Assembly: GCA_947496065.1 (NCBI GenBank)
Contig: CANMBF010000010.1
Span: 8,433-72,432, forward strand
Direction: 5' to 3'
Source of the DNA: Bacteroidota bacterium
GTDB lineage: Bacteria > Bacteroidota > Bacteroidia > NS11-12g > UBA955
Length of the DNA: 64,000 nt
In this document: positions 1-52,263 of the stretch, in pieces
How positions within the stretch are numbered: the first letter of the stretch is position 1
Layout of the letters: each line of letters opens with the position of its first letter
Translations under genes and position numbers: made by a program
The notes under the pieces: model-generated
Told to the model about the DNA's origin: nothing
The model's database searches: none
What the model saw: the letters and a program-made list of their open reading frames with translations, nothing else

Positions 1-1316
1 ATGAGGTGGAGTTTGATGAAAAGTACTTGTTTGAGTGGTTTGAGGATTGATGGCGGTTGCACTTTACACGACAAACAATCTCAATGCTTTTGAGGCTTGC
101 GGCCGTGGTTTTTTGTTTGCTGCATGCTTCGACTTTCTATGATGCTCCTCTGGAGCATTGATGCGCGGTGATGAGCCTATGGTACTAAGATATCGCTCCT
201 CTGGAGCGAAGAAGGTTTCGCTTCTACGGCACTATTTACAAACAATCTCTATGCTTTTGCAGCTTGCGATAATGGTTTTTTGTTAGCTAAAGGCTTCGAC
301 TTTCTATGATGCTCCTCTGGAGCATTGATTCGCGGGGTGCTGATCTTGTTACTAAGATATAGCTCCTACGGAGCTAGGTGTGCGAGGTGGTGAATTTGCA
401 GCACTTTCGGTGATGCTAAGATATCGCTCCTCTAGAGCGAATGAGGTTTATACAAATTGATTATTTGTAGTAATAAAGTTTGTGGCAGATGCTTAAGAAT
501 TCTCCGTAGGAGAATAATCTCAGTACCTATAGGGATACTAACAAGCATCTTCGCTCCGTAGGAGCAATACCATCCATACTTATGTCGCTAGCAAAAAGGC
601 TAGGCTGTGATGTAAGCATATCCACTTCTAAAGCAATGTTGGCTTTAGCGAGGCTTCGACTTTCTATGATGCTCCTCTGGAGCATTGATGCGCGGTGATG
701 AGCCTATGGTACTAAGATATCGCTCCTCTGGAGCGAAGAAGGTTTCGCTTCTACGGCACTATTTACAAACAATCTCTATGCTTTTGCAGCTTGCGATAAT
801 GGTTTTTTGTTAGCTAAAGGCTTCGACTATTTATGATGCTCCTCTGGAGCATTGATGCGCGGTGATGAGCCTATGGTAATAAGATATCGCTCCTCTGGAG
901 CGAAGAAGGTTTCGCTTCTGCGGCACTATTTACAAACAATCTCTATGCTTTTGCAGCTTGCGATAATGGTTTTTTGTTAGCTAAAGGCTTCGACTTTCTA
1001 TGATGCTCCTCTGGAGCATTGATTCGCGGGGTGCTGATCTTGTTACTAAGATATAGCTCCTACGGAGCTAGGTGTGCGAGGTGGTGAATTTGCAGCACTT
1101 TCGATGATACTAGGATATCGCTCCTATGGAGCGAATGAGGTTTCACCAATTGATTCTTTGTAGTAACCTAAGCTTGTGGCAGATGCTTTAGGATTCTCCG
1201 TAGGAGAATAATCTCAGTAACACTAGGGATACCCCCAAACCTCTTCGCTCCGTAGGAGCGATACCATCCATACTTATGTTGTTAGCAAAACGGGTAGGCT
1301 GTGATGCAAACAAAAA
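1..1316. repeat. Tandem/segmental array of 167-bp hairpin-rich units (family A), truncated by the window edge
   Basis: GCTTCGAC unit starts at 126, 293, 653, 820 and 987. Layout is A(126-292) B(293-618) linker A(653-819) A(820-986) B(987-1311). 1-125 is a diverged preceding unit. Confidence 0.9.
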
Positions 1317-12149: not shown

Positions 12150-12215
12150 GGCAATAGGAGAAAGTGTAATAGATAAATTATCTGCTAGGAAAGTTGGCAG
12201 TTGGTATTCTGAAAG
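12150..12215 (+). repeat. Copy of the ...GTGNAATAGATAAATTATCTGCTNGNAAAGTTGGCA flank element
   Basis: Homologous to 13625-13665 and 18195-18240. Confidence 0.7.
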
Positions 12216-12625: not shown

Positions 12626-13321
12626 ATGAAAAATAGATATATTTTGATATTGTTTGGATCGATTTTAATAATATTTTGTAGCTGCGGATGCAAACCTAAA
12701 GATTGTCACAAAGATGGTACTTGCGCAGCGGATAATAGAGTCTTTCCACTAGGAGAAGCAAAAAAATATTTGTGCTTTAATAAAGGAAGTTATTGGATCT
12801 ATAAAAATACTAAAACTGGCGATTTAGACACACAAGTTTGTGAAGGCTATCTTCTGGATAATATCGTTGAAAAAGGCACTTTTAACCATACCAAACATAT
12901 AACCGTTCGATACGAGTATATGTCAAGAGCAATAAGTAGTTCTTTTAATGATTGTTATTATTATGATGTTACTGCTGGTTATAATCCAGATGCTTTGAGG
13001 CCATTAAAAACTATAATTGATAGAAATTCATCTTCAATTGGAGCCATTGAGGCCTTTTTTTATCCGTTTGTCACTAATGACAAAGAGGGCAATGGTAGTA
13101 ATATGACCACATGCATCGGGTTAGATAGCACCCTCACTGTCCAAGGCAAAACCTATTATAATGTTGCAAAGTTTGATGTAGATCGGGATGATGTCTGGTA
13201 TAATAATGCAAGTTATCCCAATGCAGTTTACTATTGGGCAAAGGATGTTGGATTAATAAAAAGGTGGAATAAAACTGAAAACTTTTCTTGGGAATTGATA
13301 GAATTTAAAATAGTAGAATAG
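12626..13321 (+). CDS. Hypothetical lipoprotein
   Basis: Signal peptide with a Cys-rich lipobox region (IIFCSCGC). AT-rich. No recognisable domain. Confidence 0.5.
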   Translation: MKNRYILILFGSILIIFCSCGCKPKDCHKDGTCAADNRVFPLGEAKKYLCFNKGSYWIYKNTKTGDLDTQVCEGYLLDNIVEKGTFNHTKHITVRYEYMSRAISSSFNDCYYYDVTAGYNPDALRPLKTIIDRNSSSIGAIEAFFYPFVTNDKEGNGSNMTTCIGLDSTLTVQGKTYYNVAKFDVDRDDVWYNNASYPNAVYYWAKDVGLIKRWNKTENFSWELIEFKIVE

Positions 13322-13322
13322 T

Positions 13323-13580
13323 ATGAAATCAAGTTCAATACAAATAGTAATATACATTCTGACTCTGGTATGTGTGAATTTAAATGCTCAGTCAACAACT
13401 GATTTAGAATTGCATAATCGCTATTGGACTTACCGTGAAAATTTTAGGAAGTATTTTAAAAGTATTGGTAAGGAGAATGGACAAAACATTGCATTTGTTG
13501 AAATTTCCCGCTCTATTTCTGCTGACAATATTAATTGACATCAAACAAGAAATAAGTGGAGCGGTGAAAGTATTGAGGTA
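13323..13580 (+). pseudogene. Fossil of a CHU_C-type secreted protein gene (N-terminal 71 codons fused out of frame to the last 14 codons)
   Basis: The 13323-13538 ORF encodes a signal peptide plus about 50 aa. 13537-13581 in another frame reads DIKQEISGAVKVLR-stop, matching the C-terminus DIKQEITGAVEVLR-stop of the 13794-18170 gene. The 3' flanks are also homologous. Confidence 0.5.
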
Positions 13581-13665
13581 ATGCAAGGCAATAGGAACTA
13601 GGGAATAGGCAATAGGGAATAGGGGAGAAGGTGTAATGGATAAATTATCTGCTGTATTTGTTTGC
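13537..13665 (+). repeat. Copy of the CHU_C gene 3' end plus the flank element
   Basis: Aligns with 18126-18232 through the last 14 codons, the stop, the AGGAACTAGG word repeats and the GATAAATTATCTGCTG tail. Confidence 0.8.
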
Positions 13666-13793
13666 TTTTTATGACTTCCAACACATACCTATGTTTTTTG
13701 AATAAATTGTAAATTAAAATAATCCAAAAGTAATCAGATTCATGAGTCTTCATATTTGAGTTGTTTTATTGATTTATTCCCTAAAATCGTATT

Positions 13794-16700
13794 GTGAACT
13801 TTGTAAAGGTTAGATATATACTACTTTCAATTATTCTACTTAGCATTAGTATTTGCAATGCCCAGAACTTTGAGTGGCAAAGGGCTTTTGGTGCTTATAC
13901 GAGAGACAATATGGAGACGAGAGGTTTGTGTGCTGAAGTCAATGGCGTATCTACTTTTCTTGTGAATACTGCTACTATGGTTGGAAAAAAAACATTTAAT
14001 CCCGACTCCATTCGTTTTGATAATTTGGTTTTTAAATTTCCTACAAGTTTAGATTATTATAATAAATGCTTTATCGTTCGTTTAGATAGTAATGGTCGAA
14101 CCCTTAATGCTAAAATGCTAGGAAATTTTTATGCCTATGATATGTGCAAAGACAAAGATGGTAATTATTATTTAACTGGCATTGCCAATGTTGATACAAT
14201 GGCCACAGTGGATAGTTTTAAATTACACGATTATCCCAGCATTTATTTCTATGCAAAATTTGATAAAAATTTCAATTTAAAATGGATGGTTCAGATTGAC
14301 CAGTCGGTGAATGATTATTGGCAATTGCAGCATCTTATGTTGTCCGAAGGGCATCTCTATTTTACAGGAGCAGCTTTGGGGAAATCGAAAATTGGGTCGA
14401 CTAATTATAATTTTGGGGCCAATTATAAAGTAGTTTTAGGTGAAGTTAACATGAACAATGGTGCGATAATTTGGAGTAATTATTTAAATATTAATTCAAG
14501 TTCTTATGGCTACACATTAATGAAGCTATTGCGCTTGAAAAATAAATTATACATCGCAGGTTTTGTTAGTAGCGGAAATTCAAATTCAAATGTTTTAATC
14601 AATACTGATTCACTTTTTGTGTCGGGTAGTTTTGTATTAGAAACTGATACTTTAGGGAATTATATAAAGTCTTTTACGATTGATAATTTTTATCAATCGA
14701 CAATCAATGCTATCGTTACGGATGGTAAACATTTATACATAGCGGGTAGTTTTAGAGATACCTTGCGATTCGGTAATAAGAAAATAATACCACAACTAAC
14801 AAAGGGCGATGGTAGTAATTCGAATACCAAAGAATTGTATATAGCATCCATTACTACTAACTTTAAAACAAGGTGGTTTTATCATCCTGAAATTTTGAAT
14901 AAAAGTAATTCCACCTATTTCGTTAATCAAATTACTAACTCTACATTCAGTGATGGTTTTCTTTATTTTGGAGGAACCGTGGGCTCAAAAATATTAATTG
15001 ACAGCAATACAATTTCACCTACTTACCAAAGCGATGTTTTTTTAATGAAATCTGATACACTGGCTAATATCCTTTGGGCAACTTCTGGGAAATCTACTTT
15101 TGGTGAAGTCGAAACCATGGATGCAATTGGCGGTAAATCAGTATTTGTCGGTGGTCGATTTACGCGCCAATTGGAATTAGGGAAATTTAAAGATACTGGT
15201 ATTGGTTTGTACAATAGTTTTGTAGCCAAAATAACTGATTTTGCCATTAAAAGAGGAAATGTTAAAGCTGGGCCCTATTGTGCTGGTGATAGTATTCGTA
15301 TTCCTTATAATCTAATTGGCAATTTTGATAGTGCTAATTTTTTTATAGCTCAACTAAGCAATGAGGATGGTAATTTTGACAAAGGCTACAAAGAATTGGG
15401 AAGACTAAAAGCCAATAAAGATGGAACAATTATTGGCGTGTTGCCAATGTTCAAGGTGGTTTCTTCAAACAAATACCGCATTCGCATTTTAAGTACAAAA
15501 CCAGCTGTTCAAAGTTATTATAGGACGGATACACTTCGGTTGTTGATTTATTCAAGAGATAATGCCTTTGCAGGAAATGATACAGTAATTTGCCGTGGGG
15601 ATACAATTGCAATATCAACGTACGGAGGTACGAAATGGAAATGGACACCAAATTATAATATGCTAGACAGTAATAGTCGTGTAGCTAAAGTTTGGCCAAG
15701 TATAACCGCGCGTTACCGAATTGTGATTGCCGATAGCTCGGGCTGTGGCGCACCTGATACTGCCTTTAAAACAATTGAGGTAAGGAAAAGCCCATTGGCA
15801 AAAATATTGAATATTGATACTGCATATTGTGTTGGTGCTTCTATTCCTCTAATTGCAAAATTTACCAATGGAGATAGTTTGAACTATAGTTGGAAATGGT
15901 ATTCAGTAGACCCCTTAGGAAATTACACAGAACTTAAAAGTGGTAGTTTAAAAAACGTTGATACCTTATTGTTTAAAATGCCAGCCATTGAAAAGGATTC
16001 TCAAAAAATTGTATTGTATTTAGAAGATGGCTGTTCAAATATAATTTCTGTTGCCAAGTATACAATAAAGATTAATAAACTAAAACCAAAGATTCAATTA
16101 ATAGCTTATGACACCGCTTTGTGTCCTGCAAGTACTTTAGCTATTACTTCGGAGTTTAAAACCATTGTTCCAAAATTGAACAGTTGGCAATGGTATGAAA
16201 CGAATTTTTCAGGCTTCTTTTTTCCAGGTGTTATCAGAAAAAATAAAACAGCAGATACCCTTTTATATACGGCACCGCTTAATATTCCTTTAAATAAAAA
16301 AATTAGAATCATTCTAAAAGACAATTGCTCTGAAAAATTTGATACAGCAATCCTTAAAATCAGAATGAGAGATACCCTAAGCCTGCAATTAAGTACCAAT
16401 GATACCACTTTGTGTTCCGGCAGTAGGCAATTGTTTAAAGCCAAAGCACAAGGCGGTTTGCCAAGCGCTTATCAATATCAATGGTTGGATGTAAAAAGCA
16501 ATAAAATACTTTCCAATATTGATTCACTGTATTTAAAAGCAGATAGTAGCAGACAAATAAGGGTTAGTGTTACCGATTATTGTATGCCCAATAATTCGTC
16601 AACCTTGTTGACTATTAAAATGAAGCCTGCTTTAGCAATTGACGCACAATTAAAGGATACCACACTTTGCTATGGACAAAACATAAAGTTAAAAGCCAAT

Positions 16701-18170
16701 GCCAAAGGCGGTGTGCCAGCCAATTATACCTATCAATGGAGCCTGAATAATACCGCCATTGCTAGTGACGATTCAGTCAATTTAAATACAAGTTCATTTG
16801 CTTCAAAAAGTGGAGGCACTACAAAGCTGCAATTAGTTGTTAGCGACCAATGCAGTCAACCCGATACTGCTTTAATGAATCTAAACATTCTGCCTGCTAT
16901 TACTACTAAAGTACTAAAAGTGGATAGTATTTGTTTTAATACCAATGTTCTATTTAAAATACAAAACACTGGAGGGAAACAACCTTATCAAATGGCTTGG
17001 TACAATCAAAGCTATGGATTGCTCACTAAGGCCGATAGTTTAATCATTCAGAATAATACACTCGCGCAAACAGGACTCAAACAATTCAAAGTAATAGTTA
17101 AAGATGCATGCTCTCAACCTGACACCACATTTATTACTACTTATTTAAGCACTCCTTTATCCTATCAATTAACAAGCTCCGATTCATGTCCTACTAACAC
17201 CGCAGTGTTAAATATGAATGCCAAAGGTGGGCGTGGAAACTATTTAGTAAAATGGTATGTCGATAATGTATATGCCGACACCAGTAATGCGACTAAGTTG
17301 GTTCAACCTAAAATGATAATGACGAAATACAAAGCGCTTATTTATGATGCTTGCAGTAAGACTCCCGACTCAGCAGAAATTCAATTAAGCTTAAAGCAAG
17401 TATTAAAGCTAACACTCAAAGGCAATTGCTTAGGCGATACAAGTATTGCCAAAGTGAGCAGCACTGTATTTAAGCCAGCTACTACTTATCAATGGTGGTT
17501 GAATGCAAGTTTGCAAAACAATCAAGACAGTGTAATTAAAATTACTTGGCCTGCGGTGGGCACTTATCAAGTAAAAGTAAGTACTGCCAATGGTACTTGC
17601 AAAGGCAGCGATTCTGATACAGTTGCAATAGTTAATAAACCCAAAGCCGACTTTACCTATCTAAAATTAACACCTACTTCAACAGGTTTTCCATTCCGTT
17701 TTATCGATCAGTCGCAACAAGCCACTACCTGGACCTGGTTTACCAACAATAGTAAATTCTCTCAAATTCAAAATCCCGATTATACCTATACCGATACTGG
17801 TTATTATAAAGTAAAATTGAGGGTGTCGAACAATCAAATTTGTTTCGATAGTTCTGAAAAAATAATCCCTGTATTTGCGCGCACCCAATTTTATTTTCCG
17901 AATGCCTTCAGTCCGAATGGCAATGGCATTAACGATGGCTTTGGATTAAGTACAACCCAGTATTACTTGGTAAAAAACTATCATCTAGAAATTTACAACC
18001 GCTGGGGCGAGCGCATCTTCCAAACCGACGATGTAAAAGAACACTGGCTAATTCCTTCACCACAAAACGAACGCCAACCACCACAAGGCGTCTACCTCTT
18101 CAAAGTCCTCATCACCGATATTTTCGATATCAAACAAGAAATTACCGGAGCAGTGGAAGTACTAAGGTAA
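13794..18170 (+). CDS. Giant secreted adhesin-like protein with a gliding-motility-associated C-terminal domain (CHU_C / T9SS type B)
   Basis: GTG start with a signal peptide. Many Cys-containing Ig-like repeats. One PKD-like module. C-terminal FYFPNAFSPNGNGINDGF...YNRWGERIF. Confidence 0.75.
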   Translation: MNFVKVRYILLSIILLSISICNAQNFEWQRAFGAYTRDNMETRGLCAEVNGVSTFLVNTATMVGKKTFNPDSIRFDNLVFKFPTSLDYYNKCFIVRLDSNGRTLNAKMLGNFYAYDMCKDKDGNYYLTGIANVDTMATVDSFKLHDYPSIYFYAKFDKNFNLKWMVQIDQSVNDYWQLQHLMLSEGHLYFTGAALGKSKIGSTNYNFGANYKVVLGEVNMNNGAIIWSNYLNINSSSYGYTLMKLLRLKNKLYIAGFVSSGNSNSNVLINTDSLFVSGSFVLETDTLGNYIKSFTIDNFYQSTINAIVTDGKHLYIAGSFRDTLRFGNKKIIPQLTKGDGSNSNTKELYIASITTNFKTRWFYHPEILNKSNSTYFVNQITNSTFSDGFLYFGGTVGSKILIDSNTISPTYQSDVFLMKSDTLANILWATSGKSTFGEVETMDAIGGKSVFVGGRFTRQLELGKFKDTGIGLYNSFVAKITDFAIKRGNVKAGPYCAGDSIRIPYNLIGNFDSANFFIAQLSNEDGNFDKGYKELGRLKANKDGTIIGVLPMFKVVSSNKYRIRILSTKPAVQSYYRTDTLRLLIYSRDNAFAGNDTVICRGDTIAISTYGGTKWKWTPNYNMLDSNSRVAKVWPSITARYRIVIADSSGCGAPDTAFKTIEVRKSPLAKILNIDTAYCVGASIPLIAKFTNGDSLNYSWKWYSVDPLGNYTELKSGSLKNVDTLLFKMPAIEKDSQKIVLYLEDGCSNIISVAKYTIKINKLKPKIQLIAYDTALCPASTLAITSEFKTIVPKLNSWQWYETNFSGFFFPGVIRKNKTADTLLYTAPLNIPLNKKIRIILKDNCSEKFDTAILKIRMRDTLSLQLSTNDTTLCSGSRQLFKAKAQGGLPSAYQYQWLDVKSNKILSNIDSLYLKADSSRQIRVSVTDYCMPNNSSTLLTIKMKPALAIDAQLKDTTLCYGQNIKLKANAKGGVPANYTYQWSLNNTAIASDDSVNLNTSSFASKSGGTTKLQLVVSDQCSQPDTALMNLNILPAITTKVLKVDSICFNTNVLFKIQNTGGKQPYQMAWYNQSYGLLTKADSLIIQNNTLAQTGLKQFKVIVKDACSQPDTTFITTYLSTPLSYQLTSSDSCPTNTAVLNMNAKGGRGNYLVKWYVDNVYADTSNATKLVQPKMIMTKYKALIYDACSKTPDSAEIQLSLKQVLKLTLKGNCLGDTSIAKVSSTVFKPATTYQWWLNASLQNNQDSVIKITWPAVGTYQVKVSTANGTCKGSDSDTVAIVNKPKADFTYLKLTPTSTGFPFRFIDQSQQATTWTWFTNNSKFSQIQNPDYTYTDTGYYKVKLRVSNNQICFDSSEKIIPVFARTQFYFPNAFSPNGNGINDGFGLSTTQYYLVKNYHLEIYNRWGERIFQTDDVKEHWLIPSPQNERQPPQGVYLFKVLITDIFDIKQEITGAVEVLR

Positions 18171-18300
18171 TGCAAGGCACTAGGAACTAGGAACTAGGGG
18201 AGGAGGTGCAATAGATAAATTATCTGCTGGAAAAGTTGGCACCCTTCGACTCCCGATAGCTATCGGGACAGGATGACTAAGCAGTTGGCAATGAAACCTC
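18126..18300 (+). repeat. CHU_C gene 3' end plus the flank element, a TCCCGAT hairpin and GTTGGCA words
   Basis: See 13537-13665. It contains TCCCGATAGCTATCGGGA at 18251-18268. Confidence 0.8.
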
Positions 18301-22536: not shown

Positions 22537-23062
22537 GCCACAGATTCACAGATTAAATTTGAATACATTAATACCACAGATTAAATTTTAATGCTTAATA
22601 TTTTACTCAAGTGCTTCTTGTCCCGTAGGGACAAAACATCTGTAAAGTACAACCTACCCAATGTTCAATATCCCGTAGGGATTATACTTATAACTAAGTT
22701 TTAACAAAAAGCGATAATAAGTTATCGGTCAGTCAACGAATACCACAAATGAAATCTAACGCTTAATCTTTCACAAAGCTTCCTCTTGTCCCGTAAAGAC
22801 AAAACATCTGTAAAGTGTCACCTATCCAAAGCTTCAATATCCAGTAGGGATTATACTTATAACTAAGTTTTAACAAAAAGCGATAATAAGTTATCGGTCA
22901 GTCAACGAATACCACAGATTAAATTTAACGCTTAAGTTTTCACAAAGCTTCCTCTTGTCCCGTAGGGACAAAACATCTGTAAAGTGTCACCTACTCACTG
23001 CCTCAATATCCCCTAGGGATTATACTTTTGACTAAGTATCACTAGTAAGCGTTAAAGCATGA
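22537..23062 (+). repeat. Family B element: head motif GCCACAGATTCACAGAT plus three tandem 169-bp units
   Basis: ACCACA(G/A)A unit starts at 22573, 22742 and 22911. Each unit carries TGTCCC-GTA-GGGACA and ATCCC-GTA-GGGAT hairpins 50 bp apart, plus CGATAA-TAAG-TTATCG. Confidence 0.9.
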
Positions 23063-23593
23063 AAAAGACTTAGAAAAAACAAACTACTAATAAAGTACAT
23101 AAGATCTCAGATGGATTTTACTTTTGTGTGTAACAGAGTAATGGTGCCTATGCTTTTTTCTTTTTTAAAAAAGTACTGAATAGTAAGCTTGTAATTGCAA
23201 GTATTAAAACAGGAGGGAAGATTATGAAAATTTCAATACTGTAAACAAGTCCTTTGAAGAGATATTTTATTCCTTTAATCAAGCAAGCAAGTTGCATTGC
23301 GTATGTCAACACATGGTTAAGTTTATAATAAATTTTATTGGTCTGCTCAATAGGGTTACTCTTCTTATTTTACCAATGAAAATTTTACTTCTCGAAAGCT
23401 ATCAGGATGGGCCCAATGGTTTGGTTGTATGTTGTAAATAATTTGTTGCGATGGAGCTTTGCCTTGCAAAGCTGACTCTCTTACTTTTTTGTTTGGACAA
23501 AAAAGTAACAAAAAAACCACCACGCATAGAAAATTTCAATCGGTCTTCTCGCGCTGGCTCGCCCTTCATCCCTGACCGAAAGAAATTTTTACG

Positions 23594-23611
23594 TCCCGAT
23601 TATTATCGGGA
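23594..23611. repeat. TCCCGAT-family hairpin
   Basis: TCCCGATTATTATCGGGA, inside an ORF-free palindrome cluster. Confidence 0.7.
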
Positions 23612-23943
23612 TGGACCCAGCCCGCACGTCTAGCGTTCAACTAATTTTGTGCGTTAGTGTAAGTTATTGGTTTTAGTCAATGATCTTTTTCCTTCGCTGA
23701 CTAAAATTAATTGATGTGTAATATAATCTTTACATCGGCATATTAATGAAGCCATATGATTAAAAAACATACCATTTGGTATTTATAAGAGAAACTAATG
23801 CAAGTTGTATAGAAACAAGAGGTAGATGAATTAGATACGACTTAATCGAAAAGGCTGTTGTCGTTAATAGGAATTGGTTTTTTGTGCAATATCTTAAAAG
23901 TTAATCTGTGTATCTGTGGCGTATTAACTAAACAAAGGGCCAC

Positions 23944-23969
23944 AAAAAAAACGCCCGAATAATCGGGCG
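23944..23969 (-). terminator. Rho-independent terminator downstream of the lipoprotein gene
   Basis: 7-bp GC stem CGCCCGA-ATAA-TCGGGCG followed on the minus strand by T8. Confidence 0.75.
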
Positions 23970-24109: not shown

Positions 24110-25588
24110 TTAGTAAGCCAACTGTTGAGAGTTGAAATTAGCCCAAACATCTGACCAATCGTCTGAACCAAAAGCACCTTTGAAACTTGTAGTGTTGTTG
24201 AACCAAGTAGATAATTTAGCATCTGTAAATTTAGCACCACTTTGGGTTGCACCAGAGAACAAAGCCAAATTAGGGTTTTGAGGGTAAGTACCACCAGTAA
24301 CACCAGAAACTGTATTAAAGCCCATGATTAAAGTTGGCTCGATACCAGCATCAGCAAATGTTTTAGAGTAAACCAAAGTACCAGAAGTTGCTTGTGGATT
24401 GTTTAAAGTAAATACTGTGTTAGATTTAGTTGTTTTCCAGTAAGTAGCTACGTTAGCATCTGCTGCAGCACCATTGAAGAAAGAACGTTGTGATTTTCCT
24501 TTAACACCTGGGCAAACCAAGATATTATTATCTAATACAGCAGCACCACTATTGTAGTTAGCGATAGTGCCATCTAAATTTAAACCAATTGGGTAACCTA
24601 CTATTACAGAATTGAATAAAGATAATTCAGTATTTCTTCTTAGGTGTAAAGCGTGTAAGTAGTTACCGCTGAAAGAAGCTTTAGCTGAATCGTAAACTGG
24701 ACCTAATAAAGTTACGTTAGAGAATACAGCAGAAGTTTTAGGGGTTGAAGTTGAACCAGAAGCATCGTTATCAGATTCGAAACCGTTTGAACCAGATTGG
24801 TCAGCGTTGAAAGGGTCACGCATACCGATAGCGTATTGCACTTTACCACTGAAACCGAAGTCGGTATCGAAATCATCATCCCAACCACCGAAAGCGATTA
24901 AGTGTGCACAATTAACAGTACCACCGAACCACTCGTAAGAATCGTCACCACCGTAAGATATTTGAACGTAGTCGATAGTTGTACCATTACCAACTGCACC
25001 CATGGTTAAACCATTGGTTTCGTTGTTTGGAGTAATAGCGATACCAGCATATTCAATACGTACATATTTTAAAATACCACTGTTGTCATTGTCGTTAGCA
25101 GTGCTTTGGAAAGTACCATAAATAACTGCAGGTGTAATACCTTCGATAGATGGTGAGTTTTGGTTAATGTTAGCTTTACCCAACATAATAACACCACCCC
25201 AATCACCTTGCTCTCTAGCACCTCTGTCTTGGTTACTAGTAAAGATAATTGGACTAGAAGCAGTACCATCAGCAATGATTTTTCCACCTGGCTTAACTAC
25301 TAAAGTACCTTTAGAGCTTTTTTGACCAAATAATTTAGTACCTGCAGGGATGGTTAAAACTGAACCGCTTTCTATGAATACTTGACCAACTATTAAATAC
25401 TTTTTGGTAGCATCTAAAGATTGCGTTGGCAAAGAACCAATTAATTCTGTGTAGATAGCTGGCGGCTGAACTAAGATGGTATCACGAATGGTGATGTATT
25501 CTTTTTCAATCTTAGTCTTGGTGCAAGAAGAGAATGTGAATGCAGCAACTGATGCAATAATTCCCATTGTTAAAAATTTAAATTTCAT
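24110..25588 (-). CDS. Conserved hypothetical lipoprotein downstream of the TonB-dependent receptor (non-SusD)
   Basis: Lipobox FSSCTK. Motifs GDWGGVIMLG, YEWFGGT and FESDND. Codon usage looks strongly biased. Confidence 0.65.
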   Translation of the reverse strand: MKFKFLTMGIIASVAAFTFSSCTKTKIEKEYITIRDTILVQPPAIYTELIGSLPTQSLDATKKYLIVGQVFIESGSVLTIPAGTKLFGQKSSKGTLVVKPGGKIIADGTASSPIIFTSNQDRGAREQGDWGGVIMLGKANINQNSPSIEGITPAVIYGTFQSTANDNDNSGILKYVRIEYAGIAITPNNETNGLTMGAVGNGTTIDYVQISYGGDDSYEWFGGTVNCAHLIAFGGWDDDFDTDFGFSGKVQYAIGMRDPFNADQSGSNGFESDNDASGSTSTPKTSAVFSNVTLLGPVYDSAKASFSGNYLHALHLRRNTELSLFNSVIVGYPIGLNLDGTIANYNSGAAVLDNNILVCPGVKGKSQRSFFNGAAADANVATYWKTTKSNTVFTLNNPQATSGTLVYSKTFADAGIEPTLIMGFNTVSGVTGGTYPQNPNLALFSGATQSGAKFTDAKLSTWFNNTTSFKGAFGSDDWSDVWANFNSQQLAY

Positions 25589-32859: not shown

Positions 32860-32942
32860 CACCACTCACAATAAAACCGATTAAACAGTAGTTATCTAAC
32901 ATTATGCTAAAAGAAAAAAACACTTGTCATCCCAATTTTAAA

Positions 32943-34727
32943 ATGACAGGTTTAAATCCATCAACGTTCTTGAAATTATCATTCACTTTATTTTTTGCTC
33001 TGTTATTGTTCACAGCAAAAGCACAAACATCTGTCAAATTCAGTGTTTATTTCGATGTCAACCAATCTAAAATTAAAATCAAAGATTATTTGGTGCTAGA
33101 TTCTGTTGTCAATATTTTAAAAAGCAAAACCAATATCAAACGCATTCAAATTAATGGATATGCCGATACTACAGGTGGTGCCGAAGCCAACTTAGAATTG
33201 TCTAACAGCCGTACCGATACCGTGGCTGGTTATATTTTAAGTAAGAACTTAATGGTGTATAAAAGTCGCGTAGCCACTGCGAGTTTAGGTGAAAAAGTAT
33301 CGGGCAAAGAAACCGACTTAGAGCAAATGCGTAGAGTAGACATTGTCATTATGATGGCCCGTGCCGATCGCGATACCATTGTTCGCGCTGGTTGTGTTAC
33401 GGCCATGATACCTGCCAACACATTCGAAGGATTTAACAACGACGAATTAATATTCAAATTAGAATACATTAGCAATGCAACCGATGTAAAAAAATACAAC
33501 TTAACATTTAAAGATGCCGATGGCAATCAATTGTTGAGCAATGGCATTGTAAAAGTAACAGCCATGTACAAAAGCAAACCGGTAAAAGCCATTAAGCCTA
33601 TTACTGTGAATATTCCGAAAGTAAACAACGAAGCTGGCTATTCTGCCTACCTTGGTGTTGAAGATAAAACCAAAAACATTACTTGGAAATTAACCGACAA
33701 GAAGGTTATTAACCTAGGTGTTAAACAAGCGCCCAATGGCGATGCTTGCGATTTACAATCTTTCAATATCAAAGATGTGAACCGTTTTTACAATGCCGCT
33801 AAAGTGCGACCAGCCTGCTATTGCGCTGCCGATCCATTTGGTGGTTTGCAAACACCTAACAAGTCAAATGCCATGGCCAAATTCGGTCCTGCAGGTAATA
33901 TTGTTTTAGTAAATGAAAGCAGCTTTAAAAAAGTAGCGGCCGATAAAGCCTATGTGCAAGTGGTAGATGATAAGAGCAAAGAAGAGTATATGGATTTTTG
34001 CAACAGTTTCTTATACCCAGGCATTAGCGATATTCCACAAATACCAAAATTCGAAAGAGAAGTGGTAAAATTCATCGACTTAAATGTCTCTCAAAAAAAT
34101 GATTCAGCTGATATCATCATGTCGAAAAAAGACATGGTTTTAATCATGTTGCCTAAAAGTCAATTGCCTGCACACAAAGGCAAAAGATATGCGGTATTGC
34201 CAGCAGATACTAAAAAAGATAATTTCTTTAACTGGACCAAGAAGATTGTATTTGCCGATTCTTGTCGTGGTTTAGCCAATTGCGATTATGTCATTTTTGA
34301 AGTGCCTTTCACTGGCTTTTACACTGTATTGGAATTAACCCCAGTAGCGGGCAAAGGCAATGCAGCAGCAGATGATGATGGTGAGAAAGCAGCACCATCG
34401 AAAAATGTGAAAATAAAATGCAAAAAATTCAATGGCGTAAATGTTATCTATGGACAAAAAGATGATGGTGTTACCGCTTCAGCCAAGTTCTTAAAGAACA
34501 AAGGCAAGAACACTATTTTAGAACCTAGCATTCCTAAAAAAGAAAAGAAAAACTACAAGCAACATGTTTTCTTGTCGTATGTTATAAAAGATGGCAAACG
34601 ATATGCATGGATAGGCAAAGGCAGTCAGTTAAAAACCGGTTTCTTAAGTGGCAATTGGAAAACCCCAACCTTGGTATACGTACCCGATGAAGAGTGGGAA
34701 GCCTTCGTAAGAAAAGCCTGCGAATAA
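32943..34727 (+). CDS. OmpA-like domain protein with a large uncharacterised C-terminal region
   Basis: Signal peptide. OmpA-like segment YFDVNQSKI...INGYADTTGGAEANLELSNSRT. About 450 aa follow with no recognisable domain. The alternative ATG at 32904 is not excluded. Confidence 0.65.
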   Translation: MTGLNPSTFLKLSFTLFFALLLFTAKAQTSVKFSVYFDVNQSKIKIKDYLVLDSVVNILKSKTNIKRIQINGYADTTGGAEANLELSNSRTDTVAGYILSKNLMVYKSRVATASLGEKVSGKETDLEQMRRVDIVIMMARADRDTIVRAGCVTAMIPANTFEGFNNDELIFKLEYISNATDVKKYNLTFKDADGNQLLSNGIVKVTAMYKSKPVKAIKPITVNIPKVNNEAGYSAYLGVEDKTKNITWKLTDKKVINLGVKQAPNGDACDLQSFNIKDVNRFYNAAKVRPACYCAADPFGGLQTPNKSNAMAKFGPAGNIVLVNESSFKKVAADKAYVQVVDDKSKEEYMDFCNSFLYPGISDIPQIPKFEREVVKFIDLNVSQKNDSADIIMSKKDMVLIMLPKSQLPAHKGKRYAVLPADTKKDNFFNWTKKIVFADSCRGLANCDYVIFEVPFTGFYTVLELTPVAGKGNAAADDDGEKAAPSKNVKIKCKKFNGVNVIYGQKDDGVTASAKFLKNKGKNTILEPSIPKKEKKNYKQHVFLSYVIKDGKRYAWIGKGSQLKTGFLSGNWKTPTLVYVPDEEWEAFVRKACE

Positions 34728-34739
34728 ATCTCGTATTTT

Positions 34740-34775
34740 AAAAAAAACCTGCAAGAAAACTTGCAGGTTTTTTTT
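34740..34775 (+). terminator. Rho-independent terminator after the OmpA-like gene
   Basis: 9-bp stem ACCTGCAAG-aaaa-CTTGCAGGT followed by T8, with an A8 run upstream. Confidence 0.8.
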
Positions 34776-34777
34776 GA

Positions 34778-35054
34778 TTAGTTATTAGTTAATCGTTATT
34801 AAGGGGTATACCACCCAATAACCTAATAACCTAATAACCCACTAGTATAAAAAAACATACCAAGTAGTATGCATTTTCAATAATAAGCCAAAGCTTTCAG
34901 ACCCCGAAGGGGTCATATCTCTATAATATAGATAAAGCCAGATTGCTCTCGACCCCGAAGGGGTCGAATATAAGTTATTGGTTAATTGTTAATAGTTATT
35001 AAGGGAATACCAAGCCCCCTATTAACCCAATAACCTAATAACTCAATAACCCCA
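34778..35054. repeat. Composite palindromic element: two AT-rich TAACC/GGTTA-word arms flanking two GACCCC-GAA-GGGGTC hairpins
   Basis: Arms at 34778-34840 and 34973-35054 are direct repeats, and each is internally an imperfect palindrome. Hairpins at 34900-34914 and 34950-34966 are 51 bp apart. Confidence 0.8.
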
Positions 35055-35117
35055 AGTCACTGTCTTCAAATTTGCGCACCTTTGTAGAACTTGTTTTTAG
35101 CATATTAAAAAATAATG

Positions 35118-41077: not shown

Positions 41078-41605
41078 ATGTCAGCGAGACTTAAAAATTT
41101 TGACTATTCTTCTCCTGGGGATTATTTCATCACTATCATTACGAAAAACAGAGTGCATTATTTTGGCCAAATTAAAGCTCCACCAATTGAAAATACAGAA
41201 ATTAATGAGTCGAAAATGTTGTTAAATGCTATTGGGTTAAGGGCGCACCAATGTTTACAAGAATTAAATCATCATTTTAGCAATGCCATAATTGATGAAT
41301 TTATTGTAATGCCTGACCATGTCCATTTTATTTTGAGTATAAAAAAACCAAACACATTAGATGCAATTATTCAAAAGGAATTTAAATCCAATCGATTTTC
41401 AAGACCAGTTGCAGGCTCAGTGTCTGTTATTGTTCAACAATTCAAGGCCGAAGTGAAACGGTGGTGTGGTAAAAATGGGTTTGAAGCGTTTCAATGGCAA
41501 CCAAGGTTTTACGACCGATTGATAAGAGATTATCGAGAATTTGCCAATGTAAAGAAGTATATCCAAGAGAATCCCAAAAAATGGGGTAAAAAAAAATCCA
41601 AATAA
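41078..41605 (+). CDS. IS200/IS605-type HUH/Y1 transposase homolog, RAYT-like
   Basis: HUH motif PDHVHFIL (H81-V-H83), catalytic-Tyr region WQPRFYDRLIRD (Y145), and a C-terminal YIQENPKKW. There is no partner tnpB. Confidence 0.75.
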   Translation: MSARLKNFDYSSPGDYFITIITKNRVHYFGQIKAPPIENTEINESKMLLNAIGLRAHQCLQELNHHFSNAIIDEFIVMPDHVHFILSIKKPNTLDAIIQKEFKSNRFSRPVAGSVSVIVQQFKAEVKRWCGKNGFEAFQWQPRFYDRLIRDYREFANVKKYIQENPKKWGKKKSK

Positions 41606-41611
41606 ACCGCC

Positions 41612-41741
41612 TGTCACACCAACATACGTGTTACATCATCACACTTGCTACACCATCATGCCCATTACACGATCATCTCTGTTACACCATCAAACGTGTT
41701 AAACGAGCAAACCTGTTACACCAGCATATATGATGGTGTAC
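41612..41741 (+). repeat. Seven exactly phased 17-bp direct repeats (consensus TGTTACACCATCA + 4 nt) plus a terminal inverted copy
   Basis: Unit starts at 41612, 41629, 41646, 41663, 41680, 41697 and 41714. The inverted TGATGGTGTAC at 41731-41741 pairs with unit 7. Confidence 0.9.
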
Positions 41742-42094
41742 TATCGCGCCAATCCCAAATACTCTCTCACTTTTCCCGGCAAACTATTCCTTACCAAATC
41801 ATAGCTATGATCGATCAATTCCATCACGAATGATTCTTTCAACCCATCGAGTGTCACCGTGTTCCAATGGGTTTTGTTCATGTGGTAACCATGTTTTATT
41901 TGTTCGTATTCTTCTCTTAATAATACAGCGCGCTCGGGGTCGCATTTGAGATTAATGCTTACAAAGTTATCGATGCTGCAGAGGGCGAATAATTTACCAC
42001 CTACTTTCATTACGAGGGTATCGGGACCGAAGGGGAGGTCCTCGGAAGTGCCGGGTTTGCTGAGGCAGTAGTTTCTGTAGTGTTCGATGTCCAT
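41741..42094 (-). CDS. MmcQ/YjbR-family DNA-binding protein
   Basis: MDIEHYRNYCLSKPG...PFGPDTLVMKVGGKLFA...HMNKTHWNTV is typical of the family. The ORF-track N-terminal extension is rejected. Confidence 0.75.
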   Translation of the reverse strand: MDIEHYRNYCLSKPGTSEDLPFGPDTLVMKVGGKLFALCSIDNFVSINLKCDPERAVLLREEYEQIKHGYHMNKTHWNTVTLDGLKESFVMELIDHSYDLVRNSLPGKVREYLGLAR

Positions 42095-42111
42095 GGGGAG
42101 GATTACTTTTA

Positions 42112-42119
42112 CAAACATA
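42112..42119 (-). promoter_or_regulatory. -7 box upstream of the yjbR-like gene, duplicated at 42464-42471
   Basis: The plus strand reads CAAACATA, 17 nt before ATG 42094. An identical box lies in the second copy of the tandem duplication. Confidence 0.45.
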
Positions 42120-42334
42120 GAAAGAAAACCATTAAACACAAAGCGAAGCTTCATTGATGCCATATTAAAAAAAATAAAAAAATCAATATAAGACACACAA
42201 TTTTTTTTGAGCAGTGTTTTGCGGATTGAAATTTGATTAAGGGTTTTTTAAATAGTTTTAGAATGAATGATGCTTTTTAAAAGTTCATACCGCGAAGCAG
42301 CATTGATGCCTTAAAAAAAACAATAAACAAATCA

Positions 42335-42377
42335 ATATAAGGGCTTTTTTACTGTGTAAAAAATGGGCTTGCGAATT
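42335..42377 (+). repeat. Family D element
   Basis: ATATAAGGGCTTTTTTACTGTGTAAAAAATGGGCTTGCGAA. Confidence 0.7.
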
Positions 42378-42629
42378 ACTTAGTTGTATTTAATTCCTAT
42401 TGAGAGGTTTGCTGAGGCAGTAGTTTCTGTAGTGTTCGATGTCCATGGGGAGGTTTACTCTTACAAACATAGAAAGAAAACCATTAAACACAAAGCGAAG
42501 CTTCATTGATGCCATATTAAAAAAAATAAAAAAATCAATATAAGAAGCATAAGTTTTTTTTTGAGGACTTTGGGTTTCAAATAACAGTTATAGGTTGAAT
42601 CAAGTGTGATAGATATAACTAAACTTTCA

Positions 42630-48730: not shown

Positions 48731-48744
48731 GTTAAAAACAATCA

Positions 48745-49075
48745 TCTAACCACAGTCAGACTGAGCCTGTCGAAGTCCCAGTACTTCCAAGATTAACGCC
48801 CAAGGATTATTGTTTAAGCCAACCATTCAGGCTTCGTAACTCTTCGACCATACGTTCGACTCCCGATAGAAATCGGGACAGTATGACGAAGTGTTAGGCT
48901 AACGAAAAAACATAACCTACATCAGTCAGACTGAGCCTGTCGAAGCAATAGTACTTCTAGGAATAATATCTTAGGATTTGAATAATCACAATCGATCTGT
49001 GAACTAATCACAGTTTTAATCTGTCCCAATAGAAATAGGGACTGTGGCTTAATTATGGCACAATCCAAACTTGGT
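48745..49075. repeat. Family C: two units of about 170 bp carrying GTCAGACTGAGCCTGTCGAAG and a TCCCGAT hairpin
   Basis: The 21-mer starts at 48755 and 48925. TCCCGATAGAAATCGGGA lies at 48861-48878. Confidence 0.8.
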
Positions 49076-49094: not shown

Positions 49095-49317
49095 TTTTAT
49101 GAGACAGGCTAAAAGTATAATCCCTAAGGGATATATAAGCAGGGGTTAGTTTTTACTTACAGTTATTAAATCCCTACGGGATAAGGATACAATTGTTGAT
49201 TTTTGAGTTGCATAAATTAAATCCCTACTTAATGGTGTAGGCTAAAAGTTAATTTTTAGTAGTAAAATTAAATCTGAGAATTTAATGTATTCAATTCTCT
49301 TCTGTGAATCTGTGGCT
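49095..49317 (-). repeat. Family B element, inverted orientation, ending with the head motif next to the Usp gene stop
   Basis: GCTAAAAGTATAATCCCTAAGGGAT...ATCCCTACGGGAT...CTGTGAATCTGTGGC. This is the reverse complement of the 22.5-kb units. Confidence 0.85.
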
Positions 49318-50486: not shown

Positions 50487-51602
50487 ATGTCCGGCATCTA
50501 TATTCACATCCCTTTTTGTAGACAAGCGTGTATTTACTGTAATTTTTATTTTAAAACAGGAACAACGCAAGTCGATGCCTTGGTTGAAGCCATTTGTAAG
50601 GAAATTGAATTGCGGAAAAGCGAATGTACTGAGCCTGTTGAAACCATCTATTTTGGTGGCGGAACACCTTCATTTGTGCCGGCCGAGGCCATTGATAAAA
50701 TTATTAAAACCATTTACCAACATTACCTGGTAGAAAAAATAACGGAACTAACTTTAGAAGCCAATCCAGATGATATTAATGAGACTCAATTATTAGCGTG
50801 GAAGGCTGCAGGTGTTAAGCGATTAAGTATAGGCGTTCAAAGTTTTTACGACAACGATTTAAAATGGATGAACCGAGCGCACAATGCCCATGAGGCAGAA
50901 ACTTCGATTCAATTGGCCATTGCAAATGATTTTGAAGTGAGCATTGATTTAATCTTTGGTTTGCCCGAAAGCAAAGAAGAACAATGGCGTTTTAATTTGA
51001 TAAAGGCCAATGCTCTAGGGGTGCATCACTTATCGTGTTACGGTTTAACTTTGGAAGAAAACACAGCTTGGAAAAAATTAATTGACAAAGGTAAATATGC
51101 CCCAGCCAACGAACAGCTTTCGGCCCATCATTTCGAATGGACCATGGAGTTTTTAAGTCGCTATGGCTGGCAACACTACGAAATTAGCAATTACTGTCAA
51201 CCGGGGTATATGGCCAAACACAACACATCGTATTGGCAACAAAAACGGTATTTGGGATTTGGTCCTTCTGCCCATTCATTCAACGGCAGCGAACGCCAAT
51301 GGAATGTGTCCGACAACGCAGCTTATACCCAAGCAATCAAACAAGGACACTTACCTGCCGAAAAAGAAGTGCTTACAGAAGAAAATAAAATCAATGAGTA
51401 CATTATGACCGGTATGCGCACGCAATGGGGCATCAATCTAAATACCTTGTCAGAAATGGGCGGTCGCAATGCTGCATTTAACGAGCAGTTAGAAAAGCAT
51501 TTGAATAATAAAATGGTGGAGCAAAATGATCAGGTGATTCGCTTAACCAATAAAGGCAAAGTATATGCAGATGCAATAGCTGCGGATTTTTTTGTGAGTT
51601 AG
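50487..51602 (+). CDS. hemW: Radical SAM heme chaperone HemW / oxygen-independent coproporphyrinogen oxidase-like protein
   Basis: IHIPFCRQACIYCNF CxxxCxxC radical SAM motif and the GGGTPS motif. Confidence 0.85.
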   Translation: MSGIYIHIPFCRQACIYCNFYFKTGTTQVDALVEAICKEIELRKSECTEPVETIYFGGGTPSFVPAEAIDKIIKTIYQHYLVEKITELTLEANPDDINETQLLAWKAAGVKRLSIGVQSFYDNDLKWMNRAHNAHEAETSIQLAIANDFEVSIDLIFGLPESKEEQWRFNLIKANALGVHHLSCYGLTLEENTAWKKLIDKGKYAPANEQLSAHHFEWTMEFLSRYGWQHYEISNYCQPGYMAKHNTSYWQQKRYLGFGPSAHSFNGSERQWNVSDNAAYTQAIKQGHLPAEKEVLTEENKINEYIMTGMRTQWGINLNTLSEMGGRNAAFNEQLEKHLNNKMVEQNDQVIRLTNKGKVYADAIAADFFVS

Positions 51603-51609
51603 AAGTATA

Positions 51610-51665
51610 GCCACAGATTCACAGATTGAAATTAGCACCAATAGATTTCACAAATTTTAATACTT
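51610..51665 (+). repeat. Family B head fragment, starting 7 nt after the hemW stop
   Basis: GCCACAGATTCACAGATTGAAATT... is homologous to 22537-22600. Confidence 0.8.
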
Positions 51666-51734
51666 AAATTTGTTAAGAAAGATGTTTGTCTTTATTTTTT
51701 TTTGACTTGAAGCCAATTAGTTTTTTATCACACA

Positions 51735-51945
51735 AGCTAAAAGTATAATCCCTACGGGATATTGAGGCAGTGGTTAGTTTTTACTTACAGATATTATATC
51801 CCTACGGGATAAAGCGACACATTAGTTATTATTAGGTTTACATCTATTAAATCCCTAACGGATAATGTATGCAATAAGGTACTTTTATACATTAAATACA
51901 ATCTGAGAAATGATTGTATTCAATACTCTTCTGTGAATCTGTGGC
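51735..51945 (-). repeat. Family B element, inverted orientation (copy 1 of 2 upstream of 52264)
   Basis: It begins GCTAAAAGTATAATCCCTACGGGATA and ends CTGTGAATCTGTGGC. Confidence 0.85.
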
Positions 51946-52009
51946 TAATAAAGACTCAATCCTGTTTTGTTCAGATATTTATCGGCCCTTGGGTTTGTTA
52001 GTATTTAAC

Positions 52010-52220
52010 GTAGGCTAAAAGTATAATCCCTACGGGATATTAAGGCAGTGGTTAGTTTTTACTTACAGATATTAAATCCCTACGGGATATAGAAGCAGGG
52101 GTTAGTTTTTACTTACAGATATTAAATCCCTACGGTATAATATATACCATTAGTTTATTTTCAGCATTAAAATTCAATCTGAGAAATAATGTATTCAATT
52201 CTCTTCTGTGAATCTGTGGC
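52010..52220 (-). repeat. Family B element, inverted orientation (copy 2), with three 50-bp sub-repeats
   Basis: TCCCTACGG hairpin cores at 52027, 52077 and 52127. It ends CTGTGAATCTGTGGC, 43 nt from the amidase stop. Confidence 0.85.
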
Positions 52221-52263
52221 TTTTTAAGAATAAGCGCAGCAACACTGCATGCACACGAAAAAA

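Follow-up and report, generated by a model that had tools for sequence, protein, structure and literature searches.

The window analysed here is a 64,000-nt stretch of a Bacteroidota contig (GenBank CANMBF010000010.1, positions 8,433 to 72,432). It is AT-rich (37.6% G+C), and the contigs that match it come from freshwater-lake metagenomes and belong to an uncultured lineage of Bacteroidota. Three of its intergenic spacers contain copies of a repeat termed family B, in which a conserved 16-nt ‘head’ is usually combined with a train of short hairpins: the spacer between a DUF3037 gene and a beta-helix lipoprotein gene, that between a DUF4286 gene and a Usp gene, and that between hemW and an amidase gene. 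All three spacers are convergent, and the identities of the neighbouring genes agree with Pfam. To our knowledge, repeats of the type built from repetitive extragenic palindromes (REPs) and REP-associated tyrosine transposases (RAYTs), well studied in Proteobacteria, are almost unstudied in Bacteroidota.

The head motif, GCCACAGATWCACAGA, occurs six times in the window with at most one mismatch (22537, plus strand; 23905, minus; 49301, minus; 51610, plus; 51930, minus; 52205, minus), compared with 0.05 copies expected from shuffled sequence. All remaining sites have at least four mismatches, leaving a sharp gap between the heads and the background, and no additional head occurs in the roughly 10 kb of the source contig past the window. 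Five of the six had been listed in a preliminary description of this DNA, and the distances it gave are correct: the heads start 14 nt after the DUF3037 stop codon, 7 nt after that of hemW, 18 nt after that of Usp and 43 nt after that of the amidase gene, and the head at 23905 lies 22 nt past the T-run of the terminator of the lipoprotein gene (23952-23969). The sixth (51930-51945, minus strand) had been overlooked. It lies about 320 nt from the amidase stop and heads a tandem element, standing behind another element rather than a gene, so the reported ‘five of five’ heads behind a gene end becomes five of six.

A full element is about 210 nt long (alignment A2). It consists of the invariant 16-nt head, a 5′ module of about 60 nt carrying TTGAATACA and CAGATTRAATTTTAATG, two or three 13-nt hairpins of the form ATCCC-GTA-GGGAT placed 50 nt apart, and an invariant end, ATCCCGTAGGGATTATACTTTTAGC. 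Head, hairpin stems and tail do not vary in the alignment; the spacers do. The hairpins within one element share a single orientation and are joined by conserved linkers. Only four of the six heads (22537, 49301, 51930 and 52205) have a hairpin train on their 3′ side.

The first element, E1 (22537-23032, plus strand), has its head at 22537-22552, followed by the 5′ module and three 169-nt tandem units; every unit combines a head-like ACCACAGATTAAAT with a pair of 13-nt hairpins, some 50 nt from one another, and the tail TATACTTWTRRC. On the other side of the same spacer, E2 (23905-23920, minus strand) is a solo head, GCCACAGATACACAGA, without a hairpin train. It lies behind the intrinsic terminator of the lipoprotein gene (24110-25588), a hairpin of CGCCCGATTATTCGGGCG followed by T8 on the minus strand (23952-23969). 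E3 (49108-49316, minus strand) is complete, with its head at 49301-49316, a 5′ module, hairpins at 49170 and 49120, and a tail; its ortholog is present in L132. The hemW/amidase spacer is the most crowded. E4 (51610-51672, plus strand) is truncated to the head and 5′ module, about 60 nt in all; E5 (51736-51945, minus strand; head 51930-51945, hairpins 51798 and 51748, tail) is not adjacent to a gene end but stands in tandem behind E6 (52014-52220, minus strand; head 52205-52220, hairpins 52076 and 52026 plus a degenerate third, tail). A small terminator-like hairpin at 52235-52249 separates the E6 head from the amidase stop. The hairpins that follow 51610 are part of the minus-strand E5, not of E4, and although the heads in this spacer do face each other, as had been described, whole elements do not. 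The E4 head and the head at 51930-51945 form an exact 16-nt inverted pair.

Two neighbouring intervals contain further repeats or structures. Over the roughly 865 nt that separate E1 from the solo head (23040-23905) there is no convincing open reading frame (ORF), gene callers giving only one of 38 aa, and a hairpin, GTCCCGATTATTATCGGGAT, lies near 23595. In the DUF4286/Usp spacer, positions 48740-49060 are occupied by another repeat family with two copies of CAGTCAGACTGAGCCTGTCGAAG and hairpins CTCCCGATAGAAATCGGGAC and GTCCCAATAGAAATAGGGAC, the latter lying within an apparent degenerate minus-strand head (AATCTGT..CTGTGGC).

Hairpins of the same kind as those of family B occur beside a gene for a Y1/HUH protein. 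The window begins with the 3′ end of this gene (1-48, plus strand), which is IS200-like and encodes 154 aa; the full gene is found in L134 (12460-12924, minus strand). The protein scores 87.7 bits against Pfam Y1_Tnp and 65.5 against the NCBIfam IS200/IS605 model (cut-off 55), falls under the cut-off for REP_Tyr_transpos, and has ISDra2 TnpA as its closest solved structure. By its motifs, DHIH, WQ and YIDKQEAHH, it belongs to TnpA-Y1 subclass 1.2, whose signature is DH[IV]H, WQ, Y---Q--HH. Homologs of 153 aa, about 60-70% identical, form 6798 clusters in Bacteroidota and Kapaibacterium, each on one or a few contigs, many of them only about 1 kb long. Subclass 1.2 has been described as a low-copy group of Bacteroidetes and Cyanobacteria without insertion sequence (IS) properties and with the entry ‘REP: no’; the automatic REP search of that study accepted only stems of 7 bp or more with a GT[AG]G foot (Quentin et al. 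2018, BMC Genomics 19:475, PMC6006769).

Directly past the stop codon of the Y1 gene lie the ‘family A’ hairpin trains (60-1310): 15 perfect 13-nt hairpins, set about 51 nt apart within tandem units of 167 nt. They take the forms GCTCC-NNN-GGAGC (GCTCC-TCT-GGAGC and GCTCC-GTA-GGAGC) and TCTCC-GTA-GGAGA, and the length of the trains varies between assemblies. All of the seven further Y1 homolog loci, each from a different genome, carry hairpin trains of this kind at the flanks of the gene, giving eight genomes in total. The general form is NNNCC-GTA-GGNNN, a 5-bp stem ending in CC with a loop that is mostly GTA, repeated with a period of about 50 nt. GAYAT often follows on the 3′ side; a conserved foot tetranucleotide is absent from these hairpins, and GTAG spans the loop (CC-GTA-GG). 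At six loci, 46 of the 47 perfect hairpins are found no farther than 1.3 kb from the Y1 gene, which corresponds to a density ratio above 100, and two further genomes are consistent with this clustering.

The association does not depend on searching for hairpins. When CCNNNGG sites were scored for complementarity at all three outer pairs, 47 of 51 sites in the Y1 flanks were positive as against two of 142 elsewhere in the same loci. The corresponding figures in the window are 15/18 for family A, 10/15 for family B and 4/136 for the rest; two of these last four form a doublet (34901 and 34952). At least 17 different stem and loop sequences are represented among the hairpins, and the retention of pairing across so many stems amounts to covariation. 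Altogether the window contains 29 perfect 13-nt hairpins where 1.7 are expected, and these are in intergenic spacers except for two probable chance matches. The hairpins of family B agree with those of family A in stem length, in the CC-GTA-GG core and in the period of about 50 nt.

The doublet just mentioned (34901-34964, plus strand) consists of two copies of ACCCC-GAA-GGGGT set 51 nt apart, past the strong terminator of gene 32904-34727. Within the surrounding interval (34728-35071) it is flanked on both sides by 8-nt repeats of the AATAACC type and by TTATTAAGGG(G/A)ATACCA. The Y1 flanks of L156 (5955-5990 and 6570-6650) contain hairpins of the form GCCAC-GTA-GTGGC-GACAT. Their GCCAC...GTGGC foot also forms the ends of the head palindrome described below; at 5 nt it is too short to serve as evidence and may be a coincidence.

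The head has a much wider distribution than the composite. It is one arm of a palindrome made up of GCCACAGATTCACAGATT, an A/T-rich loop and AATCTGTGAATCTGTGGC, and the head module is composed of CACAGATT units; most heads of the window have no partner arm close by. Among species-representative genomes, a scan found at least 120 stretches with the head motif. About 550 chance matches are expected in the whole collection, so isolated matches outside Bacteroidota mean little. Nearly all of the matches listed are from Bacteroidota (Flavobacterium, Pedobacter, Chitinophagaceae, Sediminibacterium, Bacteroidales and Cytophagales), and a few are from Ignavibacteria and Methylococcales. Both arms are present at 54 or more loci, often extended by TTA..TAA or TTTT..AAAA. 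Among the 54 inverted pairs listed, 32 lie between genes of the same direction, 16 between convergent and six between divergent genes. In same-direction spacers the hairpin has its median position 36 nt past the upstream stop and is nearer to this stop than to the next start in 23 of 32 cases (p=0.02); in convergent spacers the median distance to the nearest stop is 11.5 nt among the matches listed. A position shortly behind gene ends is, then, a general property of the head motif.

The identity of the system to which the head belongs was sought in several ways. Rfam gave no match in the window at its gathering threshold and only chance-level matches in two of the spacers at an E-value threshold, and at 24 other loci it placed the head hairpins in no family, matching only adjacent tRNA and Flavo-1. 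The plasmid and phage collections contained no real matches to the head. No protein family, transposases included, recurs beside the heads at the 120 loci examined, and tblastn searches of these loci with both Y1 proteins of the window (the second is described below) found neither. A literature search by sequence and by topic gave no account of the head or the hairpins, returning only 16S primers and unrelated papers. As a canonical terminator the head hairpin is ruled out: among the 32 same-direction hairpins listed, T-runs occur on the sense side in six, on the antisense side in seven and on neither in 19, with no sense enrichment. Arm mismatches read on the sense strand divide evenly between G-U and A-C (15:16), a comparison of little power, given that the search itself fixed one arm. 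The exact conservation of the head suggests a sequence-specific DNA-binding factor.

A few of the head loci are unusual. In L126 (1-330), from an unclassified metagenome-assembled genome (MAG), at least six heads form a head-to-tail array with a 52-55-nt period and without unique spacers, the unit being GTAGCCACAGATTCACAGATT plus TTTTGAGAACAA..CACAGAAGRAAA. At what appears to be the same site in two Cytophagales (L102, 3239-3274; L124, 2887-2922), the upstream ORF seems to end within the head hairpin; its stop would fall in the loop, AGAATAATCAG, making the first arm coding. Copies of Flavo-1 RNA (RF01705) share loci with head hairpins in L030 (3458-3556), L029 (2598-2666 and 4735-4813) and L130 (721-864). 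The nearest approach is 67 nt, in L030, and the window itself contains no Flavo-1.

Within its own lineage family B differs from strain to strain. Behind the DUF3037 gene, the array counts a single unit in L009 as against three in the window. The hemW/amidase spacer is 250 nt long with a single element in the sister strains L002 and L061, compared with 661 nt and 2.5 elements in the window, and E4 is not present in either sister strain. Within the additional piece of about 410 nt between hemW and E6 in the window are the heads 51610 and 51945, an exact inverted pair with TA at its flanks. The L002 element is partly closer to E5 than to its positional ortholog E6, which suggests recombination between copies. 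In the syntenic relative L152 there are no heads and no hairpins at all, and the DUF4286/Usp spacer is 30 nt long as against 604 nt in the window.

The preliminary description held that family B elements always start just after a gene end and are co-oriented with that gene. Their proximity to gene ends stands; strict co-orientation does not. As the spacers are all convergent, to be co-oriented with the adjacent gene is the same as for heads to be outermost and to point inward, and the pattern recurs in L131, from the same population, where a bare head lies 12 nt past the stop of a minus-strand gene in a convergent spacer. The counterexamples come from the gene-distal sixth copy and from other genomes. 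A metagenome scan with a 20-mer specific to family B gave three loci. In L002 and L061 the lone element filling the hemW/amidase spacer is on the minus strand, and its tail, not its head, touches hemW and supplies the stop codon. The C-terminus of HemW differs between strains because the stop codon of the sister strains sits in the element tail: the protein ends in FFVS in the window (51597-51602) and in FFVSNAG in L002 (11040-11060) and L061 (3650-3670). A related MAG, L031, has a plus-strand head at the boundary of a minus-oriented hairpin train, placed 125 nt upstream of a minus-strand gene's start codon. Among the matches listed from other genomes, same-direction spacers hold single heads in both orientations, 11 co-oriented and 13 anti-oriented. 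Strict co-orientation is thus a small-sample pattern with counterexamples and is not established.

The interpretation we favour, with a probability of roughly 0.55, is that family B elements are lineage-specific mosaic intergenic repeats of the REP type, resembling bacterial interspersed mosaic elements (BIMEs) and put together from two modules of different origin. The head module is one arm of the palindrome found behind genes in many Bacteroidota, in Ignavibacteria and in a few Methylococcales. The other module is a direct train of 13-nt hairpins ending in ATCCCGTAGGGATTATACTTTTAGC, of the form seen at the flanks of Y1 genes; these hairpins are REP-like candidates for substrates that the Y1 protein may bind or cut as single-stranded DNA. 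The composites may have spread and been reshuffled through tandem duplication and recombination between copies, and would persist in spacers at the 3′ ends of genes, mainly convergent ones, because insertions there miss promoters. The apparent polarity would then follow from the position of the heads, which point inward from the outer ends of the repeat blocks occupying convergent spacers.

Several observations weigh against this interpretation. That the Y1 protein acts on these hairpins is a step that we infer. The stems beside the Y1 gene (GCTCC/TCTCC) are not identical to those of family B (ATCCC/GTCCC), and classical RAYT systems have the same REPs in both places, beside the gene and dispersed. 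Hairpins of the other seven genomes were seen only beside the Y1 gene, within flanks of 6-10 kb, so that evidence of their spread comes only from the lineage of the window. The head is absent, at up to three mismatches, from all Y1 loci examined, and nothing links it to the Y1 gene. The piece of about 410 nt specific to the window is not cleanly bounded by inverted heads. Finally, the six outermost heads, that of L131 included, all point away from the nearest gene, for which p is about 0.016 if the six are independent and about 0.06 if inverted pairs are counted once; on the former figure, polarity in the lineage of the window may be genuine.

Such polarity is accommodated by a stronger proposal, which we consider possible though somewhat doubtful. 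The subclass 1.2 Y1 protein may have its own cognate repeat, the 13-nt CC-GTA-GG hairpin, as a new type of REPtron (REPs together with their RAYT) that stays near its gene in most genomes and has spread in this freshwater lineage, and GCCACAGATTCACAGATT may be recognised by a conserved factor of Bacteroidota that marks gene ends, which would make the head-first polarity real here.

The preliminary description had also proposed that the elements may be RNA modules of the 3′ untranslated region (3′ UTR). On such a reading, read-through RNA would stabilise the mRNA, pause or terminate transcription, bind protein or, within about 15 nt of the stop, stall ribosomes. Such a role would suit heads lying 7-43 nt past stops (three of them within 18 nt) and sharing the direction of the nearest gene both in the window and in L131, as it would the phylum-wide occurrence of head hairpins near stops, and the last hairpin plus TATACTTTT does score as a weak terminator-like site. 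We think it unlikely all the same, as the features that should reveal an RNA function give it no positive support. E2 is separated from the lipoprotein gene by a strong canonical terminator, and E6 is preceded by a smaller one. A full element folds no better than shuffled sequences (z=-1.7 sense, -0.5 antisense), and neither the arm mismatches nor the T-runs of the head hairpins favour the sense strand. In L002 and L061 the element lies antisense to hemW, in contact with the stop codon of that gene, the L031 head is upstream of a gene start, and the syntenic L152 dispenses with heads and hairpins altogether. Nor do the tail and head offer a promoter, a search there giving only sigma-70-type matches at chance level and inspection by eye revealing no -33/-7 pattern of the Bacteroidota type.

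Two further explanations invoke insertion. The head might be the terminal inverted repeat of a miniature inverted-repeat transposable element (MITE), moved by a DDE transposase encoded elsewhere and carrying the hairpin trains as passengers. The exact inverted pair 51610/51945, with TA on both outer sides and missing from the sister strains, has the appearance of one, but the insertion or deletion relative to L002 is not bounded by heads, and of the four full family B elements three possess only one head. TA...TA flanks are found at many hairpins across the phylum, although they, like TT...AA flanks, are equally well explained by extension of the palindrome. Some inverted pairs do enclose 120-240 nt, and in Flavobacterium restrictum a larger copy that includes the head is found in nearly identical form on two contigs (L016 and L113); most copies, however, are merely 40-60 nt long, the 120 loci have no transposase or recurrent neighbouring protein family, and the plasmid and phage collections are without matches. 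We consider a MITE quite unlikely. An insertion mechanism that reads gene ends or terminators was the other idea of the preliminary description. Such a mechanism, for example that of class C group II introns or single-strand insertion of the IS200/IS605 type next to a fixed target, would account for elements close behind stops and terminators in a genome that encodes Y1/HUH enzymes. No tetranucleotide is common to the bases that precede the eight heads examined on their 5′ side (cttt, atac, caaa, tata, atta, aaaa, ataa and ttta), and some heads follow a terminator while others directly follow a stop codon. GC skew is positive across the entire window, so both orientations of the element lie on one replichore, unlike the result of strict lagging-strand targeting. 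This mechanism seems to us improbable.

Mosaic repeats with a Y1-associated hairpin module, the interpretation preferred here, agree with REP/BIME elements and their RAYTs in Escherichia coli and Pseudomonas on several points, and the comparison with REP/BIME elements made in the preliminary description was apt. In both cases short extragenic palindromes in many copies are combined with conserved motifs into mosaics, are enriched behind genes and between convergent genes, and vary in copy number between strains, and hairpins of the same kind flank a single-copy Y1/HUH gene (in eight genomes here). The differences are equally clear. Family B hairpins, at 13 nt with a 5-bp stem and a 3-nt loop, are shorter than the classical 20-40 nt, and they form direct trains with a period of about 50 nt whereas the REPs of a BIME alternate in orientation. 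GTAG is found in the loop rather than as GT[AG]G at the 5′ foot; the associated Y1 protein is IS200-like, of subclass 1.2 and not class 2; the flanking stems differ from those of family B; and the head module has no counterpart. The Y1 gene of the window resembles the rest of TnpA-Y1 subclass 1.2 in its signature, its length of about 150 aa, its low copy number and its occurrence in Bacteroidota, but differs from the published ‘REP: no’ in the 13-nt hairpin trains at its flanks in eight genomes. The earlier statement that the architecture matches no described family holds for the composite and the head, which are not in Rfam, and not for the hairpin trains, which match hairpins beside a known class of Y1/HUH genes.

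The head taken by itself invites other comparisons. Like the DNA uptake sequences and Correia elements of Neisseria, it is a fixed sequence, mostly in inverted pairs, just downstream of genes throughout a taxon. Unlike them, it spans a phylum rather than a genus, and its density appears low: the 64 kb of the window have six copies, and roughly 120 kb at the Y1-gene loci of eight other Bacteroidota and Kapaibacterium genomes have none. It has no known link to competence or to a transposase. With intrinsic terminators it shares a stable hairpin shortly past the stop, about a quarter of the hairpins having a T-run; in contrast to them, the sequence of the stem is conserved across genera and T-runs are as frequent on the antisense as on the sense side. 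It differs from palindrome elements derived from IS200/IS605 in having neither a fixed 5′ target sequence nor a replication strand bias.

If the link between Y1 proteins and hairpins is true, a large and conserved ‘orphan’ IS200-like family of about 6800 clusters gains a candidate DNA substrate, in a subclass that had been described with neither IS properties nor REPs. The head palindrome, an 18-nt sequence conserved behind genes across the orders of a phylum, points to a sequence-specific factor or a mobile system. The repeats also have practical consequences: they break metagenome assemblies, they alter the 3′ ends of genes, as with the stop codon of hemW, and, as they differ between co-occurring lake strains, they could be used as strain markers.

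The window contains a second Y1 gene (41078-41605, plus strand), encoding a class-2 RAYT-like protein of 175 aa with the motifs DHVH, WQ and YIQENP. On its 3′ side (41610-41740) are seven copies of a 17-nt sequence, CTGTTACACCATCATA, and one inverted copy; at the corresponding position the relative L152 has a matching palindrome, TTGTGTCATCATATATGATGACACAA. These repeats differ from family B, and the gene is not linked to the head. Ten Y1 loci were without a head over 6-10 kb, which rules out the head as the REP of either Y1 gene.

Two other repeats in the window are unrelated to these subjects. A 155-nt direct repeat (42054-42208 and 42406-42560, also 42292-42341; 96% identity) duplicates the 5′ end and the A-rich upstream region of the minus-strand gene 41741-42196. 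A conserved block of about 110 nt, containing AGGAACTAGG followed by GGAGRAGGTGYAATRGATAAATTATCTGCT, recurs at 12157-12199, 13537-13666 and 18126-18241. It occurs twice between genes 12626-13321 and 13794-18170, the second copy being complete, and the third copy spans the 3′ end of the latter, a large gene with PKD and CHU_C domains.

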